Below are positions 24,025 through 61,534 of a stretch of 64,000 nucleotides of DNA, in pieces (position 1 is the first letter of the stretch; the number at the start of each line of letters is the position of its first letter). Source of the stretch: a virus; the UHGV virus genome UHGV-0125199. The stretch is one strand, 5' to 3'. The notes under the pieces are model-generated. The model was not told the DNA's origin. It made no database searches and worked only from the letters and a program-made list of their open reading frames with translations. A program made the translations under genes and the position numbers.

Positions 24025-24270
24025 TTTATTTACCTCTTTTGATATTAATCACATCGGTATTTACAATCTTATATCACATGCAGCTCACAAACATTTTCAA
24101 ATAGCGACAAATGAAATAGTTTGTTGAATCAACGTTTACAGTTTCTAAATATTCGATTTACTGTAGGTGATATTTGATTATAAACACCGATGAAAATCAT
24201 ATGCAGAACTTTATGTATCTTATTTTATTGGAGGTATGAAACATGTATAGAAATTTATTCCGCATATGAA

Positions 24271-24342
24271 TTGTAGATAAAGGATTTGAACCTTTTCTTA
24301 TGCGCCACACTACATCGTGCTACCATTTACACTAATCTACAA
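24271..24342 (-). tRNA. tRNA-like element / probable pseudo-tRNA (intact acceptor, D and T arms, but the anticodon stem cannot be paired)
   Basis: Minus-strand reading 5' TTGTAGAT TA GTGT AAATGGTA GCAC ... AAAGG TTCAAAT CCTTT ATCTACAA has the canonical GGTTCAAATCC T-arm and a 7-8 bp acceptor. The middle segment GATGTAGTGTGGCGCATAAG does not fold. Confidence 0.3.
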
Positions 24343-24465: not shown

Positions 24466-24538
24466 TGGATCATTCGGGACTCGAACCCGAAACCGATCGG
24501 TTATGAGCCGATTGCGCTCACCATTGCGCCAATGATCC
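24466..24538 (-). tRNA. tRNA-Met (anticodon CAT; could also be tRNA-Ile2/initiator class, not distinguishable here)
   Basis: 73-nt cloverleaf folded by hand: acceptor GGATCAT/ATGATCC; D-stem GCGC/GCGC; anticodon stem ATCGG/CCGAT with loop CTCATAA; T-stem TCGGG/CCCGA with loop TTCGAGT. No CCA is encoded. Confidence 0.9.
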
Positions 24539-25144: not shown

Positions 25145-25193
25145 AGTTTTATTCTCCTTTTTAATCTAATAATTCTTTATCGATAATCTGTTT

Positions 25194-25555
25194 CCATCCT
25201 TATATTTGTATAAATTACATCTTCTTTTTCTATTTTTTATAATGCAGCTTTTCGCTCGCATTTCAATCATCATACTAATGTAAATTACATCCATTTCGTG
25301 ACGTATCTCTGATACAAAACATATAATTTCAATCCTCATACTTATGTAAACTACATCTTTATAAAAGTCTTTGGTGTTACTATTGTCTTTTATTTCAATC
25401 CTCATACTTATGTAAACTACATCGAGGTATTGAAATGGTTGACTTTGGTATCACATTATTTCAATCCTCATACTTATGTAAACTACATCCTCTCTTACAA
25501 AAATCTGCATTTTAAGCATTTCAATTTCAATCCTCATACTTATGTAAACTACATC
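25194..25555 (-). CRISPR. mini CRISPR-like array with 32-bp repeats and 34-bp spacers, periodic at 66 bp. Four identical repeats plus degenerate copies at the distal (low-coordinate) end. The crRNA-sense repeat GATGTAGTTTACATAAGTATGAGGATTGAAAT ends in a type I-B-like ATTGAAAT handle.
   Basis: Perfect repeats at 25326-25357, 25392-25423, 25458-25489 and 25524-25555. A 3-mismatch copy lies at 25260-25291 and a degenerate copy at about 25197-25221. The three internal spacers are unique. Confidence 0.75.
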
Positions 25556-25762
25556 ATCAAAAATACACAAATATGACATATCTATTTTATGTAACTTACA
25601 CAATTCTAAGGTTACAAAAGCGTTATCCGTTTTCGTATATGTAAATAAATGATTACTACTCACTGATTTCTTTTATCTACTTTAGTGCGAATAAACCGTA
25701 TAACTTATGTTCACTTCATATTCGCACATGGCGGCGTTGAACCTGCAACCATGTATATGTAT

Positions 25763-27167
25763 TTAAGCTATTTGCTTCTTATATTCTTTCTCTTTAGCCA
25801 TGTTCAAAATATTAATTGCAGCATTAATGTCTCTATCATGAATCGCTCCACATTCAGGACAAATCCAGCCTCTTATTTTTGTATCTTTTGTATTTACGTT
25901 CACAAAACCACATTTACTGCATGTTTGTGTTGATTTTTTATATTGTCCAATTGCAACAACCGGTACACCATATTCTTCACCTTTTCTTTTTAACAAAGTA
26001 AGAATTTCTCCCATCGCTGCATCAGATAAATTATCATTTCTCACTCTTGTTTTTCTTGACATACATATCTTTAACCGACAAAGTTTCTATTCCAATAAAG
26101 TCTGATCTTTTTATAACTTCTAACACCATATTCTCCATATGATATTTTCTTTGTCGTGTTACCTTTCTTTCTAATTTTGCTTTTTTAAATTTTGTTTCTA
26201 TGTATCTTTTAGAAGGCTTTAATTCAACATTTTCTTTTCTTAATTCACTTAATCTTTTCCTAAACTCAATATTGCTATACCCTTGTCTTCTGGATAATTG
26301 CCTATTTAACATCTCACGATGTTGACGAACACTTCCGTCTCTACCATTTTTGAATCTAGGATTATCATATTTTGTTCCGTCTGATAAAGTCATCAAAGTT
26401 GAAATTCCAACGTCAATTCCTATTTCTCTTTTCTCTTCTTCTACTTTCACAATCCTATAAATATCTTTCATACATAGCTGTAAAAAGTAATCGCCACAAT
26501 TATCTTTTTTTACAGTTGTTAATATTTGTTGTTTCTTATGTAAATTCACATATTCTTCAAAATTCATCATGCATGATGAATCAAACCAGACATTTTTTAG
26601 ATATCCTTTAATCCCCCTAATCTTTACCTTTCCGATTTTAGCTAAATTAAAATATGCTACATTTTTATTCTCCTCATTAAAGCTCATTTTTCTCAGAAAT
26701 TCTTGATATGTATAACTTGTTCTCGGATGTTTCTTTGAATAATATGGAGGTTTACTGTTCTCAATCGGTCTTTTAACTCCCTTTCCATTTGTTTTCTTAT
26801 TAGAATTTTCTCCACTCACTTGAGCATCCAATCGCTTCGACAAATCACACAAGAAAACTCCATTCTCACCAGACAAAGCACCCGCTGGAATCAATTTAAT
26901 GTCTTCTCTCCTACTTCTTAACACATCCAAATACTGTTTCTTTGCAATAGACTTTACATCCGGAAAATGAACAGTTTGTCCTGCATTCTTTTGGTCTGGT
27001 CTTTCAATTGTATTAACTTTATTTTCAAACATATCGTAAACAGCCATATTACACGCCTTATGTAAAGCCAAAATAATTCTATCTATTAATTCACTCTGCT
27101 CTTTATTCGGATACATTCTAAAATTGAAAGTATATACCGGTATTTTTATAACTTTTTCAACTAGCAT
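25763..27167 (-). pseudogene. tnpB: IS200/IS605-family TnpB (OrfB; RuvC-like nuclease with C-terminal zinc finger), split by a -1 frameshift in an A5 run at about 26051-26055
   Basis: N-terminal ORF has RuvC-I (IGIDVGISTLM) and RuvC-II (IGIETLSVKDM) blocks. The overlapping C-terminal ORF has LSDAAMGEI, CSKCGFV...[19 protein letters not shown]. Deleting one A of AAGAAAAACAAG restores a continuous TnpB. A structured GC-rich region 25650-25760 downstream resembles an omegaRNA/right end. Confidence 0.8.
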
Positions 27168-27274
27168 TTAACCAGACCTCCTTTTGCTACATTTCATACC
27201 ATATACTGTATTTTTATATCAACTAACGCACTATATAATGTGTCAAATTCCAAATGAAATCGAGATTTAATTAT

Positions 27275-28039
27275 TTAAGATTCGGTGATAAAAAACGGAC
27301 GAACACCATAATCGCCCCAAACGCAACCGCCGTAGCACACGTTACCACCACCGTAAACAACCTGAACACAGGAAGCATCTTTTCTTGATTTCGTCTGATT
27401 TGGAGTTGACAGCCAGTATGGATAATTGATTAGTGGAAGTTTTTCACCACATTTTCTGAATAAATCAAAAGTCGGAATAGACAATACATCATCTTTTACA
27501 ACACCATAATCATTAAATCCATCCATACTAAGCAAGTTATTTTCAACTGGAGTAATACTATTTCCATATTTACATTTAATGTCTTTTGCAAGCTTGCACT
27601 CTTTAAGATACTTTCTTACAGAAGATTCTGCGTAGTTATTATTGCTGCCAAAACTCATATTCGTAAGAACTCCATACATAAAATGATATATCTTTCCATA
27701 CATTCGAATGTTTGTCCAATAATATCCAAATTCCTCTTTAAAGTGCTTGTTCATAAAATCTTTAACGGATTCTCTAAATTCATCTTCATATCTCTCTGGA
27801 TCGTTACTATACCATTCTGGTACAATATCCTGATCGACTTTATAAGTCCACTTTGAAATATCGGAAGTGATAATATATTTCTCTGGCGGAATTAATTCTG
27901 CTCTCACAAATTTCTTAGAAGCATTAAATTCATTATCTTCTACATCCAATTTTTCAAGCAAACTTGAATGACTTTCATTTCCTAACGGAGCAAGTTCCAC
28001 CCTATTCTTAAAAATAATTCCACTTTTAAACTCACACAT
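27275..28039 (-). CDS. hypothetical protein
   Basis: ORF track. Confidence 0.5.
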   Translation of the reverse strand: MCEFKSGIIFKNRVELAPLGNESHSSLLEKLDVEDNEFNASKKFVRAELIPPEKYIITSDISKWTYKVDQDIVPEWYSNDPERYEDEFRESVKDFMNKHFKEEFGYYWTNIRMYGKIYHFMYGVLTNMSFGSNNNYAESSVRKYLKECKLAKDIKCKYGNSITPVENNLLSMDGFNDYGVVKDDVLSIPTFDLFRKCGEKLPLINYPYWLSTPNQTKSRKDASCVQVVYGGGNVCYGGCVWGDYGVRPFFITES

Positions 28040-28846: not shown

Positions 28847-30328
28847 TTATCCTACAAGTTCATACTTGTTCCTTAAAAATTCACCAATATCATTTACCAT
28901 GTATGTATAATTTTCTTTTTGATCTTTAATATATGTAGAATTTCTGTTAAAGAAACTTCCCATCCACTCAGGAATTTCTAAATCTATGTTTGTTTCAAAG
29001 CTGTACGCAACAACAGCAAGTAAAGAATTCATGTTTTCAGGCTCAAGAAGCTTAGATGAACCGTCAATTTTTTTGTCCTTCCGTAGTTTTTTTACCCAAT
29101 CATTTAAAGAAATCTTGTAAATTTCAACATCTTCACCAATCACATCTTCTTTAACATTTTCTTTGATAAATTCAAGAGCGTTCTGGTCTGAAGAAGCATT
29201 ATCTATTACATTATTCTCTCCCACTTCGACAAGACTTTCTTCATCTTCTTTAATATGTAAATACTCTTTCATAAGAGCAGTTAAGATGTTAATTTTCTCT
29301 TTTAAAATAGCCTTACCTTTTGTATGACGATCCTCATTTAATTTGTCAAATGTTGCTCCATTTACATCTTTTTTATATAAAGACTTTTCAAATTCTTCTA
29401 CAAAATCCTTAAACTTAATATCATCTAATCCAAATTTAGCAAACTCTTTAAACACAGGGATCCAAACAATAACATTTTTTGGCACAAACACTTCTGTGAA
29501 ATTATCTTTGCACACAGATTCAATCCTGCTAAAATATTCATTTACAGTATCAAAGTGTTCTTCCGTTGCGTTCTCATTTAGATATTTGCTCATGTTCTTT
29601 ATTGCACTTTTCCAGTTATCAAAGAAAAACGTTGTCATGACAGATTCACATACAAGTCTTTCTCTAATACCTTTCGATTGCTGCTTACCGGAACAAGACA
29701 TACAATTTTTAAAGAATTTATTTTTCTCAGATATTGTCCTTATTTTTCTTGCATGTAAATCAATATAAGTAAATGCTTTCTGAGATGTATTCATTCCCAA
29801 ATGATTGTTGTATCTTCTCACCAATTTACTAATCTGTGACATCGTACAATGCTGATGTATTGTAATGTCAATCTGATAATCATCAAACATTTTTTTCAAT
29901 TCTGGCGGTAACATTTCATATGTTTTTCTTCTCAAATCATATTCAACAGATTCCCAAATAACTTTTCCGTATTCATCTTTACAGATTTTATTATTTTCAT
30001 CTTTCTTTTTTCTCTGATATTGGATAATTGGATCTTCTAAAGCAGCTGTAATTTTATAGTTTTCATGCTTAAATTTAATCAACGCAGAACTTCTTTGCAT
30101 TCCATCAACAATGTATTGCTGCACAACGTCTTCGTCCAAATCTTCTTCTCCTAAGATAATTGGGGGAATATAATCATCAGTTAATACAGTTTTGATTAAC
30201 TCATTCACCATTCCATTTTCCCAACAAAACAGTCTTTGAACGTCCTGATTATCACTAATATCTTCTTCCACAATCTTTTCTAAATAAGAATCTAGCGATA
30301 ATGTCTTTTTTCTAATTTTCTTTGCCAT
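28847..30328 (-). CDS. DUF262 (ParB-like nuclease superfamily, GmrSD N-terminal-type) domain protein
   Basis: DVQRLFCWENGM and IVDGMQRSSAL match the DUF262 QR-x-x-W and DGQQR motifs. No C-terminal DUF1524/HNH motif was seen. Confidence 0.5.
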   Translation of the reverse strand: MAKKIRKKTLSLDSYLEKIVEEDISDNQDVQRLFCWENGMVNELIKTVLTDDYIPPIILGEEDLDEDVVQQYIVDGMQRSSALIKFKHENYKITAALEDPIIQYQRKKKDENNKICKDEYGKVIWESVEYDLRRKTYEMLPPELKKMFDDYQIDITIHQHCTMSQISKLVRRYNNHLGMNTSQKAFTYIDLHARKIRTISEKNKFFKNCMSCSGKQQSKGIRERLVCESVMTTFFFDNWKSAIKNMSKYLNENATEEHFDTVNEYFSRIESVCKDNFTEVFVPKNVIVWIPVFKEFAKFGLDDIKFKDFVEEFEKSLYKKDVNGATFDKLNEDRHTKGKAILKEKINILTALMKEYLHIKEDEESLVEVGENNVIDNASSDQNALEFIKENVKEDVIGEDVEIYKISLNDWVKKLRKDKKIDGSSKLLEPENMNSLLAVVAYSFETNIDLEIPEWMGSFFNRNSTYIKDQKENYTYMVNDIGEFLRNKYELVG

Positions 30329-31709: not shown

Positions 31710-33215
31710 TCTAAAAAATTGCATCAGAAATAAGCGTTTAGAAACTTGTCCACACGATTGAACTTCTCATGGCTAAAGCCACGAGATTCTTGGGAACTCT
31801 TTTCTATTGAAAAGATATTTACCAAGCTAACTCGATAGTTCCTACCGTTATTATTTATTTCGTTACGCTACTTCTAATATCCTTAATCCTTCATTTAGAA
31901 TATTTATCGCAGCATTTATATCTCTATCGTGATGAGTATGGCAACAAGGACAATCCCATTCTCTAACATTAAGATTTTTAGTTTCTTTATTCACATATCC
32001 GCATACACTACAAATTTGAGAACTCGCAAAGAATTTATCTACTTTAATAACCTCTCTACCATACCAATTAGATTTATATTCTAGTTGTCTGACAAACTCA
32101 GACTATGATACGTCCACAATAGATTGAGCAAGTTTATGATTTTTAATAATATTTTTTACTTGTAAATCTTCAATACATATCACATCATTACCCCTAACAA
32201 TCTTAGTAGATAATTTCTGCAAGAAGTCTTTTCTCTGATTTGCGATATGTTCCTGAAGTCTTGCAACCTTAATTCTTGCTTTATTACGATTTGAACTACC
32301 TTTTGATTTTCGAGATAATTCTCTTTGTAATTTTGCAAGTTTATCTAAAGACTTCTTTAAATACTTTGGGTTTGGAATTATTTCTCCTTCAGATGTTATA
32401 CAAAATTCTTTTATTCCAAGATCAATACCAACTGCATTTTTTGTTTTAGGTAATGGTTGAATTTCAATATCAGTACAACAAAGCGACACAAAATATTTTC
32501 CACTTGGTTCTTGTGATATAGTGGCATTAAGTATTCTACCTTGTGGTATTAGCTTATTTTTCGTTTTTACCATTCCCAACTTTGGAAGTTTAATGTATTT
32601 ATTGCAATATTGAATATTACCGTTTACACATTTTGACTTATAGGAATATCTATGTGTTTTCTTTGATTTGAATTTTGGATAACCTGTGTGTTCTTTAAAG
32701 AACTTCTGATATGCTGAATCTAAATCCCTAAGAGAAGATTGAAGAGCAGTGGAATCAACTTCTTTAAGCCATTCGAGTTCCAATTTCAGTGTCTTCATAT
32801 CATTTGCACATTGTACATATGAAAATGTTTCTTTATTTTTCTCATACATTTCGATGCGTTTTGCAAGGTATTTATTATATACAAATCTACAAGAACCAAA
32901 AGTTTTAGTAATTATTTCTTTTTGCTTCTTATTTGGATATATTCGATATTTATAAGCTTTTTCCACCGATTTCACCTCGCTTCCGCTTTTGATTTTTAAT
33001 ATACTTTCTAATTTGTTCTTCTGTGTTTTACACACAATACAATATGATATTGAATTGAATATACATAACCCCTACCATGTGTTACTTCCATGATTTGTCC
33101 CCTCATATGTATATTCTCCATTTGGCGATTCATCTCATCACTAAAGTGACGAGTGTTCTCGCCTAATCTAATAAAAAGTAAATTTCAATATTCAGTTTTC
33201 CAATATTTGGAATTT
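31710..33215 (-). mobile_element. IS605-family (IS1341-like, tnpB-only) insertion sequence; approximate boundaries
   Basis: tnpB flanked by subterminal hairpins: ctcatggctaaagccacgag at about 31768, and ggcga...cactaaagtga...tcgcc at about 33128-33165. Confidence 0.4.
31863..33035 (-). pseudogene. tnpB: IS200/IS605-family TnpB, second and divergent copy, with an in-frame TAG at 32103-32105 replacing the conserved Trp codon
   Basis: N-terminal part has RuvC-I AVGIDLGIKEF and RuvC-II VICIEDLQVKN. The same frame continues after TAG as [37 protein letters not shown]...[19 protein letters not shown] (zinc finger, RuvC-III). Canonical TnpB has W at the stop position (DxxWxEF). Confidence 0.8.
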
Positions 33216-59656: not shown

Positions 59657-61534
59657 ATGAATTTTAATAAACAACAAGAAGAAACTATTAATACAATAGA
59701 AGGAAACGTGGCGGTTATTGCCACAGCAGGTTCCGGTAAAACAACTGTTCTTACCCATAGAATTAAAAAAATGGTTGAAGAACATAATATATTACCATCT
59801 TCTATCCTGGCAATTACTTTTAGCAAAAAAGCAAAAGAAAATATAAACGAAAAACTAATGGAACTTAATATATCGAATGTATCTGTAGAGACTTTTCATT
59901 CATTTGCTTTGAAGATTATCTCCTCTGTGTATGGAATCAAAAAATTTAAAATATGGACAACACCATGGGAAAAAGAAAAAACAATAAAATGGATTTGTAG
60001 TGACTCTTTATTACTTTGCGATTCTGATAATGTCCCATACAACGAAATTACATCGTTTATTGCGTTGCAGAAAAATAACATGAAAACCCCAAATGATGAT
60101 TTAATTTACACTCCGGATCCCCCATTTAAAGAAGAGGATATGAAACAAATATATAAAACTTATGAAGAGTATAAAGAAATCAATTCACTTATTGAGTTTG
60201 ATGATTTTTTGAACATGGCAAATAAAATTTTTGATACTGATTATTATACTTTAGAAAAGTATCGAAATATTTTTCAGTATATATTAGTTGATGAATTTCA
60301 GGATATTTCAATTTCTCAAGCATTACTTTTAAGAAAATTAAACACAAAAAACACAATGATCGTCGGAGATCCTCTTCAGGCTATTTATTCATTTAGAGGT
60401 GGTGATAGCAGATTTATTCTAAATTTTGATACTGATTATAAAGATGTAAAAGTTATTAATCTAAATACAAATTATAGATGTAGCAAAGATATTGTATTTA
60501 CAGCAAATAAACTTGCGTTAAGTATTCCTGATTCTCAACACAAAAATTATGTAGAGAGTATTTCAAATAAAGAAAATTTTCAAATTCCTGAGTTAAGACA
60601 TTTCCCTGATGATTATGAAGAATGTTTATGGGTTGCATCAAAAATAGGAGAATTAAAATTTAAAGGATACGATTACAACGACATTGCCATCCTCGCCAGA
60701 ACAAATGCTCAATTACAAAAACTAGAGTCAACGCTGCATGATGAAGATATAGCATTTGAAATTGTTGATGGTAAAACTTTTACAGAATTACCAGAGATCA
60801 AATTGATAATTTCTTACTTTAAACTTGCGTTAAACACAAATGATAATGAATCGTTTTCTTATCTATACAATAAACCAAATCGATGGTTAGATAAAAAATT
60901 TTTAAAAGAAGTAACAGATAACAGTTTTAAAAGAAATATATCATTATACAATTCAATGTTCACGATTGACAGGAGAAATTGGAGATTCAAAAAAGGTATC
61001 GATGAAATCATTGAAGTAATAAATTATTTACAAAACAATCAGAATTCCAACATTTCAGATTTGGTAAGATTTTTGAGAAACAGATTAGACATTGATAAAT
61101 TTGTTACAAAAGGAAAGCAATCAGATGATGGAAGTTATATTGAACAAATCGACAACCTTAACAGTTTTGAAAATATTTGTTCCAAATACTCTTCCATTAA
61201 AGAATTTGTTTCATACATAGATGAGTTAAATACAGAAATGGAGAATAAAGATAATGATAAAGTCAAATTACTTACAATTCATAAGTCAAAAGGTATGGAA
61301 TATCCTGTCGTGTTTATCATTGGATGCAATGAAGAAATCCTGCCACACTATAAGAATGAAAATGTTGATGATGAACGTAGGTTATTCTATGTCGCAATTA
61401 CAAGAGCCGAAAAAGAATTATATCTATCATATGTTGATTTATATAATGGTCAAACAAAATTGATAAGCTCTTTTATTAAAGATGTTGAAAATACAATTAA
61501 AATTATAAAAAACGAAAAAATAAGTGGTGAATAA
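59657..61534 (+). CDS. UvrD/PcrA-like superfamily 1 DNA helicase
   Basis: AVIATAGSGKTTVLTHRI (Walker A/motif I), LVDEFQDIS (motif II), TNYRCSK, LLTIHKSKGMEYPVVFII and RRLFYVAITRAE (motifs V/VI). Confidence 0.8.
   Translation: MNFNKQQEETINTIEGNVAVIATAGSGKTTVLTHRIKKMVEEHNILPSSILAITFSKKAKENINEKLMELNISNVSVETFHSFALKIISSVYGIKKFKIWTTPWEKEKTIKWICSDSLLLCDSDNVPYNEITSFIALQKNNMKTPNDDLIYTPDPPFKEEDMKQIYKTYEEYKEINSLIEFDDFLNMANKIFDTDYYTLEKYRNIFQYILVDEFQDISISQALLLRKLNTKNTMIVGDPLQAIYSFRGGDSRFILNFDTDYKDVKVINLNTNYRCSKDIVFTANKLALSIPDSQHKNYVESISNKENFQIPELRHFPDDYEECLWVASKIGELKFKGYDYNDIAILARTNAQLQKLESTLHDEDIAFEIVDGKTFTELPEIKLIISYFKLALNTNDNESFSYLYNKPNRWLDKKFLKEVTDNSFKRNISLYNSMFTIDRRNWRFKKGIDEIIEVINYLQNNQNSNISDLVRFLRNRLDIDKFVTKGKQSDDGSYIEQIDNLNSFENICSKYSSIKEFVSYIDELNTEMENKDNDKVKLLTIHKSKGMEYPVVFIIGCNEEILPHYKNENVDDERRLFYVAITRAEKELYLSYVDLYNGQTKLISSFIKDVENTIKIIKNEKISGE

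Follow-up and report, generated by a model that had tools for sequence, protein, structure and literature searches.

The window analysed here, a stretch of 64,000 nucleotides (nt) of the virus genome UHGV-0125199, carries a short CRISPR array, raising the question of whether this array is an orphan that depends on the CRISPR-associated (Cas) machinery of a host, as an initial annotation had proposed, or one part of a system encoded by the virus itself. The latter is very probably the case, with the locus representing a complete, compact TranC-type (type V, TnpB-derived) CRISPR system on a large gut phage. This assignment rests on the observed anatomy of the locus, the linkage of gene, scaffold and array, covariation in the RNA, homology to LaTranC, the retention of catalytic residues, selection, spacer turnover, and the targets with their protospacer-adjacent motif (PAM). 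All parts would be read on the minus strand, where a predicted nuclease encoded by two open reading frames (ORFs) is followed, just past its stop codon, by a scaffold RNA and then by an array of six repeats.

To begin with the array, the plus strand contains the 32-nt repeat ATTTCAATCCTCATACTTATGTAAACTACATC in four exact copies, starting at positions 25326, 25392, 25458 and 25524, which, with a fifth copy at 25260 (three mismatches), are spaced strictly 66 nt apart. The remaining copy, the sixth, carries seven mismatches and starts at 25190, 70 nt beyond the fifth. Matches to the repeat at three or fewer mismatches numbered five in the window and zero in 100 dinucleotide-preserving shuffles of it. 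The five spacers, four of 34 nt and one of 38 nt, are all mutually different. Tandem Repeats Finder left the array unreported, as is expected for repeats interspersed with unique spacers. The array and its flank are arranged as follows:

25190..25555, minus strand: CRISPR array of six repeats and five spacers (S1-S5, with S1 nearest the gene); minus-sense repeat GATGTAGTTTACATAAGTATGAGGATTGAAAT
25524-25555, 25458-25489, 25392-25423, 25326-25357, 25260-25291 (3 mismatches) and 25190-25221 (7 mismatches), minus strand: the minus-sense repeats
25556..25589, minus strand: linker or leader between the anti-repeat and repeat 1, with a conserved T-rich block, AUUUGUGUAUUUUUG, shared by diverged loci

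Read in this sense, the repeat ends in GGATTGAAAT, and the T-rich block in the linker could serve either as a leader for the integration of spacers or as a signal for transcription (terminator or promoter). The initial annotation had described five 32-bp repeats at a 66-bp period, which agrees with the first five copies and misses the degenerate sixth at 25190, and had counted three unique internal spacers of 34 bp where five are present, one of them of 38 nt. Mutual similarity of the spacers, named there as grounds for doubting the array, was looked for, and the five spacers proved unrelated, so the CRISPR array stands. The interval originally assigned to it (25194-25700) corresponds to the array in its lower part, with 25556-25700 belonging to the guide-scaffold RNA region. 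The trailer had correctly been placed at the end where the repeats decay, which is the low-coordinate end, in agreement with the polarity of spacers in relatives. The proposed crRNA-sense orientation (crRNA, CRISPR RNA) also holds: the minus-strand reading is independently supported by that spacer polarity and by a change from G-C to G-U, which keeps the pairing intact solely in the minus-sense RNA.

The same annotation had reported no cas genes nearby; however, a gene of the TnpB/Cas12 family lies on the same strand, with its stop codon 207 nt from the first repeat. Its coding sequence is distributed over two ORFs:

26034..27167, minus strand: effector ORF1, 377 amino acids (aa), the N-terminal TnpB/TranC-type nuclease part, with RuvC-I (IGIDVGI) and RuvC-II (IGIETL)
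25763..26062, minus strand: effector ORF2, 99 aa, supplying the C terminus of the nuclease, where RuvC-III and two CxxC pairs (zinc ribbon) are located

ORF1 matches Pfam OrfB_IS605 (E=3.8e-13) and positions 2-305 of the NCBIfam guided_TnpB profile, while ORF2 matches Pfam Cas12f1-like_TNB (E=8.7e-21) and positions 301-388 of the same profile, such that the two jointly span positions 2-388 and amount to one TnpB/Cas12-type nuclease. The acidic triad of the RuvC site (D, E, D) and both CxxC pairs are retained, spread over the two ORFs. Scores against the NCBIfam models Cas12f2 (34.9 bits; cut-off, 450) and C2c8 (57.6 bits; cut-off, 350) both fall far short. The best sequence match in PDB is LaTranC (9jfo, 9jfp, 9jfq), at E=1.4e-65 over the full length, followed by ISDra2 TnpB at 1e-25. 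An AlphaFold2 model of the reconstructed protein, with a mean predicted local distance difference test score (pLDDT) of 81.5, is likewise closest to LaTranC 9jfq_A, with template modelling (TM) scores of 0.85/0.83, compared to 0.56/0.70 for TnpB 8h1j and ~0.55 for Cas12f. In published accounts, TranC proteins stand between TnpB and Cas12 as intermediates, with an omegaRNA that has split to give a tracrRNA (trans-activating CRISPR RNA) along with a crRNA (PMC13565253; bioRxiv 10.64898/2026.03.27.714800). For TranC clade 11, to which LaTranC belongs, the reported features are 32-36 bp repeats, a median of five repeats and no associated cas genes (bioRxiv 10.64898/2026.03.27.714800), and the locus agrees with them.

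The association between effector and array is maintained far beyond the window. Homologs at 100, 89, 70, 63, 60 and 53% identity all have an array of 32-nt repeats with a ~66-nt period on the same strand, located 155-245 nt downstream of the gene in homologs down to 53% identity. All of their repeats end in GGATTGAAAT, and the 5′ half of the repeat shifts together with the protein, clade by clade. The relatives at 70, 63, 60 and 53% occupy unrelated neighbourhoods, including the chromosome of Blautia caecimuris, and scans of viral and metagenome collections yielded dozens of further loci with the same layout; a homolog at 40% identity has a downstream array with a different repeat. Such linkage would be expected if the effector has an array of its own, and not if the two are neighbours by chance. 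LaTranC was absent among the 120 retrieved homologs. The repeat of the window was found in IMG/VR viral contigs, and a variant of it in viral contigs of 157-164 kb. That the array is phage-borne, as first annotated, is supported by the matching IMG/VR viral contigs (90-164 kb) and by the phage-type gene content of the window, which includes replication, methylase and nicotinamide adenine dinucleotide (NAD)-salvage genes.

Between gene and array lies a tracrRNA-like scaffold of ~165 nt (25751-25590, minus strand), which is conserved across the relative loci and comprises the following elements:

25729..25751, minus strand: scaffold hairpin 1, a GGUUGC/GCCGCC stem with compensatory changes and the invariant loop AGGUUCAAC
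25685..25727, minus strand: scaffold stem B, formed by GUGCGAAU ... AUUCGCAC around a variable inner hairpin, with 95% of cells paired
25614..25676, minus strand: long-range stem of AUAAAAG (25670-25676) with CUUUUGU (25614-25620), with a variable hairpin inside, from unguided RNAalifold
25590..25611, minus strand: anti-repeat region, with CCUU (25608-25611) opposite GAGG of the repeat, and UGUGUAAGUUACA (25590-25602) opposite UGUAGUUUACAUA of the repeat

The explicit structure was scored for paired cells in an alignment of 25 distinct RNA units, with slid partners and shuffles as controls. Over the whole structure, 96.8% of cells were paired, versus 34-45% with slid partners, and 13 pairs were changed on both sides, a count that none of 500 shuffles reached. 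The helices between anti-repeat and repeat had 95-98% of their cells paired, with compensatory changes in 7 of the 13 pairs of the long helix and in one of the four pairs of the short one. An exchange between AU and GC was seen in the long-range stem in 9 of 25 sequences, and stem B has one pair with both sides changed and is, as a whole, coherently shorter in loci L014 and L015. Without guidance, RNAalifold recovered from the 25-unit alignment the 5′ hairpin, the long-range stem and both helices between scaffold and repeat. Taken as a single sequence, the scaffold and first repeat of the window fold at -63.4 kcal/mol (z = -3.4). The scaffold motif GGTTCAACGCCGCC is near-invariant across loci, one unit having two mismatches.

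An interpretation of 25571-25602 as a degenerate extra repeat was ruled out by the clades with non-palindromic repeats (L014, L017 and L013), where the corresponding scaffold element reverse-complements the repeat instead of copying it and is therefore an anti-repeat. In addition, the UUCAA of the hairpin-1 loop (25737-25741) and the invariant repeat tail (A)UUGAA(AU) are complementary, suggesting that a UUCAA:UUGAA pseudoknot between scaffold loop and repeat tail could form; the candidate pairs are invariant across loci and hence beyond the reach of covariation. Rfam searches at gathering and permissive thresholds returned tRNAs only, with no omegaRNA, tracrRNA or significant CRISPR-DR match. 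Judged from sequence and covariation, the guide RNA is split into a putative tracrRNA, namely the omegaRNA-derived scaffold, and a crRNA. Two variant loci were also observed: L041:4416-4602 is devoid of scaffold stem B, and in L042:1605-1825 the first repeat is internally deleted (GATGTAATTGAGGATTGAAAT). These deletions may mark dispensable parts of the RNA, or else decaying copies.

Spacer content differs among near-identical phages in a directional manner. The trailer-end spacers and the degenerate last repeat are held in common, while the gene-proximal spacers differ: the window has S1-S2-S3-S4-S5 versus S2-S4-S5 in L033, and L038, L040 and L042 have just the last spacer in common. Common trailer spacers with different leader spacers represent the polarity of active acquisition, with the leader beside the scaffold. 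Three of the spacers in the window (S1 at 34/34 positions, S2 at 34/34 and S4 at 32/34) match one and the same ~41 kb temperate-phage contig, and its relatives, in IMG/VR, and three spacers of L001/L002 match the same temperate-phage family at 32-35 of 34-35 positions. The target contig is recognized as a temperate phage from its integrase, its CI-like regulator and its anti-restriction protein. On the spacer-sense strand, the 5′ flank of the protospacer is TTC in five of six cases and TTT in one (TTC background, 2.5%; binomial P ~6e-8), and TTC is the PAM published for LaTranC. A 5′-TTC PAM has been reported for LaTranC/TranC11a, LaTranC being derived from Lachnospiraceae (bioRxiv 10.1101/2025.09.28.678669). 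The aim at competing phages or plasmids that was first suggested for the array is supported for phages, through the matches of S1, S2 and S4; BLAST of the spacers against INPHARED phages and PLSDB plasmids returned zero matches. Spacer S10 of the sister phages had no exact target in IMG/VR, and a comparison of 108 family spacers with all fetched loci revealed shared flanks only, with no cross-targeting.

These data bear directly on the orphan reading of the initial annotation, according to which a type I-B-like mini-array supplies crRNAs to the Cas6 and Cascade of the host and the TnpB-like gene is an unrelated insertion sequence (IS). Phage mini-arrays that exploit host systems are known, the strongest family matches of the window include no adaptation genes, spacers of 34 nt and repeats of ~30 nt fit type I-B, and the 5′ position of the PAM fits type I as well; the tail AUUGAAAU is similar to the 8-nt handle of I-B/III crRNAs, making processing by a host Cas6 conceivable. 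However, gene, scaffold and array keep a fixed distance and orientation in every context down to 53% identity, anti-repeat and repeat covary, for which a Cas6 system would have no use, the PAM is the one known from LaTranC, and Rfam CRISPR-DR models gave no significant match. The effector, moreover, bears no marks of an IS, being the one copy of its type in the window, without a Y1 transposase among the listed Pfam matches, and under strong purifying selection. An exact-match scan of 185,579 species-representative genomes (one per species) for two copies of the 14-nt 3′ end of the repeat found only GC-rich Rhodothermales arrays, which are unrelated and not from plausible hosts, so that no array of a plausible host with this repeat tail was found among those genomes. 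The GGATTGAAAT tail is invariant in every array of the effector subfamily (to 53% identity), and a constraint from the RNA scaffold accordingly explains it better than a Cas6 handle does. With the array coupled to an adjacent effector and a tracrRNA-like scaffold, LaTranC as the nearest relative and a TTC PAM, an orphan array borrowing a host I-B system is extremely improbable.

The coding sequence of the effector is cut between RuvC-II and RuvC-III, dividing the protein into 377 and 99 aa, and ORF2 overlaps ORF1 in the window by 29 nt in the +1 frame. Confidence in the structural model is lowest in the loop that holds this junction (residues 364-380), located between the RuvC-II strand and the next helix. 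Among the 47 nearest clusters (clustered at 90% identity), approximately 35 end soon after RuvC-II, with at least eight types of tail, and all of these keep GIDVG; the interruption spans clusters at 47-100% identity and takes the form of several junction types. The 29-nt overlap in the +1 frame recurs in L004, L011, L024 and L027, whereas in L017 and L028 the two ORFs overlap by the 4-nt ATGA in the other frame (-1). The start methionine of ORF2 is kept, always at the same position, in all split relatives. Against relatives, ORF1 has ratios of nonsynonymous to synonymous substitution rates (dN/dS) of 0.07-0.20 and ORF2 of 0.04-0.18 (dS, 0.6-1.7), indicating purifying selection on both. A frameshift from sequencing error was ruled out, as independent contigs and distant relatives share the interruption.

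Based on these sequence features, the two polypeptides most likely assemble into one RuvC nuclease. The balance of evidence leans, if not strongly, towards the effector being a natural two-subunit RNA-guided nuclease, with a RuvC site contributed by ORF1 (RuvC-I/II) and ORF2 (RuvC-III and zinc ribbon), that has been selected across a phage- and prophage-borne TranC subfamily. The split could then serve as a regulatory point, for example by making the nuclease depend on when, or in what ratio, ORF2 is translated. It is rather unlikely that the same system instead produces its effector as a single polypeptide through programmed ribosomal frameshifting. In the window, the frames overlap for 29 nt in an A-rich stretch ending in AAA-UGA-U, where a +1 slip at a slowly decoded stop codon would be conceivable by analogy with prfB, and the Shine-Dalgarno sequence ahead of the ORF2 ATG is weak. 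A conserved programmed frameshift is nevertheless made unlikely by the two frame relations, +1 in some lineages and -1 with the ATGA overlap in others, and by slip sites that are not conserved (AAA-TGA versus ACA-TAA); furthermore, the ORF2 ATG is present throughout, and ATGA overlaps are typical of translational coupling.

Interruption of the coding sequence could also mean decay, with the nuclease gene as a frameshifted pseudogene and the array out of use. The deletion of a single A from an A5 run (26052-26056) would fuse the two frames in the window, and a second TnpB gene in the window looks inactivated by an in-frame TAG. Against such a relic stand the conservation of the interruption in ~35 of 47 clusters with several junction types, two open ORFs with dN/dS of 0.04-0.20 at dS of 0.6-1.7, the retention of catalytic residues, the gain of leader-end spacers among near-identical phages, and newest spacers that match their targets perfectly, all of which render decay very improbable.

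A sister clade at ~60% identity (P0009, P0010 and P0013; L014:2796-5900, L015, L016, L043-L047 and L054) has an unsplit protein from which the RuvC-I aspartate (GVRIG/GVHIG), the RuvC-III aspartate (HDKAVN) and the zinc finger have all been lost. The arrays of this clade are retained and vary in their spacers, a locus often having two or three modules of scaffold and array, and its element carries DarA_C/ArdC-like and resolvase genes. From these residues, P0009/P0010/P0013 are candidates for a nuclease-dead guided binder. The ribonucleoprotein of the window might similarly bind DNA without cutting, acting as a guided repressor like Cas12m or TldR and, for instance, silencing the lysogeny control of a target prophage. 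A binding-only function would exist in the lineage if the sister clade, which lacks the RuvC residues and zinc finger, uses the arrays it keeps, and the S2 protospacer falls on the CI-like regulator gene, at its 5′ end; however, the effector of the window keeps the three acidic RuvC residues and both CxxC pairs under purifying selection, and the remaining protospacers are scattered over the target genome, some of them inside ORFs. A purely repressive role for the system in the window is consequently considered quite improbable.

The favoured reading of the locus as a TranC-type nuclease system suggests the following mechanism. The scaffold RNA would be a tracrRNA descended from the omegaRNA, or right-end element RNA (reRNA), of TnpB, and each repeat would pair with the anti-repeat through a 13-bp and a 4-bp helix, leaving the invariant tail AUUGAAAU beside the spacer, which would serve as the 3′ guide. 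With scaffold, linker and repeat 1 contiguous, the first unit could fold like an intact omegaRNA, and the later units would need the scaffold in trans. On this RNA the two polypeptides would assemble into one RuvC nuclease that recognizes 5′-TTC beside the guide match and cuts the DNA of competing ~40 kb temperate phages or of their prophages. New spacers would enter at the gene-proximal end, presumably via Cas1-Cas2 acting in trans, either from the host or encoded elsewhere in the phage.

Several points weigh against this reading. RNA processing, assembly of the two polypeptides, the source of adaptation, expression and DNA cleavage are what we infer from the locus. A scan for promoters and terminators in the window yielded fewer promoter-like sites than in shuffles and zero terminators, none being assignable to the system. 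The repeat tail AUUGAAAU resembles the 8-nt handle (AUUGAAAC/G) of Cas6-processed I-B/III crRNAs. One protospacer is flanked by TTT instead of TTC, and targets were not found for S3 and the ancestral S5, S3 having no exact target in IMG/VR. In alignment with LaTranC, only ~30% of positions are identical in the N-terminal 320 aa and 45% in the C-terminal 140 aa, and on this comparison the effector is regarded as a distant member of TranC. No report of a natural split Cas12/TnpB-class effector, or of a two-piece RuvC nuclease in this family, was found in the literature consulted, so that ORF1 and ORF2 are best called putative partners. Finally, Cas1, Cas2, Cas4 and Cas6 were absent from the strongest 25 families per library (PADLOC, Pfam) for the 86 larger ORFs of the window. 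Without adaptation genes among those matches, the spacers are expected to come from elsewhere, that is, through the rest of the phage genome or the host, and the borrowing of host Cas1-Cas2 for spacer acquisition, meaning adaptation rather than interference, is possible, even likely. Clues to a candidate host are the related system in a Blautia chromosome and the origin of LaTranC in Lachnospiraceae.

Other genes of the window provide context for the locus. Its NAD-salvage set, as assigned with Pfam and PHROG, consists of nicotinamide/nicotinate phosphoribosyltransferase, NAD synthase, phosphoribosyl pyrophosphate (PRPP) synthetase and isochorismatase, and similar NAD genes lie beside the TranC locus of L013. 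The window also encodes a GmrSD_N-like protein (28847-30328), a PemK/MazF-type toxin, a C5 DNA methylase and a UvrD helicase (59657-61534), and this content suggests that the region around the CRISPR locus is rich in counter-defence and conflict genes.

In two relatives (L001:6249-8488, minus strand, and L002:7070-9309), a diversity-generating retroelement is inserted between the TranC gene and a gene of 254 aa. It comprises a reverse transcriptase (RVT_1, E=2.9e-12, YMDD), an Asn-rich template ORF (VQIVNSNGNVNYNDCNWNDYGVRPF) and an Avd-like ORF of 134 aa; in L001, the reverse transcriptase ORF runs into the TranC start and looks truncated. The corresponding part of the window (27214-28039) is without the ~1.4 kb retroelement cassette and retains the target gene (27275-28039), in whose C-terminal variable region the differences between the window and L001 fall exactly at the Asn positions of the template.

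The second TnpB gene (31866-33035, minus strand) is of the IS type, with HTH_OrfB_IS605 and OrfB_IS605 domains and matches to PADLOC Cas12f models at 4e-44. Besides the effector gene it is the sole TnpB gene of the window; its product shares 32% identity with the TranC protein, no array accompanies it, and its 3′ flank is omegaRNA-like. Its in-frame TAG (32103-32105) occupies the position of a Trp conserved in the family and is probably a TGG-to-TAG nonsense mutation. An unusual tRNA-like gene at 24270-24342 (minus strand) scores 47 bits against the Rfam tRNA model, has an anticodon stem-loop of 16 rather than 17 nt, and was assigned no anticodon by ARAGORN; a normal tRNA-Met is found at 24466-24538. 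Suppression of the TAG by the odd tRNA was ruled out, as that tRNA has no CUA anticodon.

On the reading favoured here, an apparent orphan array becomes a complete RNA-guided nuclease system of ~2 kb in total, deployed in phage-versus-phage conflict. In evolutionary terms TranC systems are recent, standing between transposon TnpB and Cas12 as intermediates, and as compact genome editors they are of practical interest. The TranC kind itself is already known from the literature of 2025-2026; the conserved two-ORF effector, this lineage's documented natural targets and their PAM, and the multi-array sister clade with a putatively dead nuclease appear to be new. If true, a selected split between RuvC-II and RuvC-III would show a tolerated division site, useful for split-delivery or inducible editors, and would pose the question of why phages keep a nuclease in two pieces. 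The 25-locus set of tracrRNAs and repeats, the TTC targets and the candidate nuclease-dead clade offer concrete material on the emergence and diversification of type V systems and on how they gain spacers with no adaptation module of their own. They also convey a warning for annotation: what is recorded in gut phages as a frameshifted transposase plus an orphan CRISPR can be a functional unit.

The locus can be compared with several known systems. Like IS200/IS605 TnpB with its omegaRNA (ISDra2; 8h1j, 8bf8, 8exa), it has a protein of the same family and fold, a guide RNA 3′ of the gene with the guide at the 3′ end of the RNA, a first scaffold-repeat-spacer unit that is colinear like an omegaRNA, and a motif 5′ of the target. 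It differs in having several exchangeable spacers between repeats, a scaffold that begins past the stop codon instead of inside the ORF, and a TTC PAM rather than a 5-nt target-adjacent motif (TAM), and in being without TnpA or a multicopy signature: no Y1 transposase is among the listed Pfam matches of the window, which has one effector copy of this type. Type V-U and Cas12f-like systems comprise TnpB-derived effectors of many independent origins accompanied only by a short downstream array (Altae-Tran et al. 2023, PMC10691335). The effector of the window is likewise linked just to a short downstream array, with no other cas genes, but lies far under the Cas12f2 and C2c8 cut-offs and is structurally much less similar to Cas12f than to LaTranC. 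Virus-borne mini-CRISPR arrays that use host Cas proteins share with it a short, phage-encoded array whose spacers are directed against competing viruses; in contrast, those arrays copy the host repeat and have no effector, whereas the array described here adjoins an effector and a predicted tracrRNA. Resemblance to Cas12m and TldR is confined to the sister clade (P0009, P0010, P0013), in which RuvC residues are lost and guide arrays kept, while the effector of the window keeps its catalytic residues. The closest likeness is to LaTranC/TranC11a, which has a TnpB-like RuvC effector of ~470 aa, an array downstream of the gene, an omegaRNA-derived tracrRNA that pairs with the repeat, small arrays with repeats of 32-36 nt, no adaptation genes, a 5′-TTC PAM, and an origin in gut organisms of the Lachnospiraceae type. 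What sets the system of the window apart from LaTranC/TranC11a is an effector split into two ORFs, residence in a lineage of 90-164 kb phages, and spacers aimed at temperate phages.

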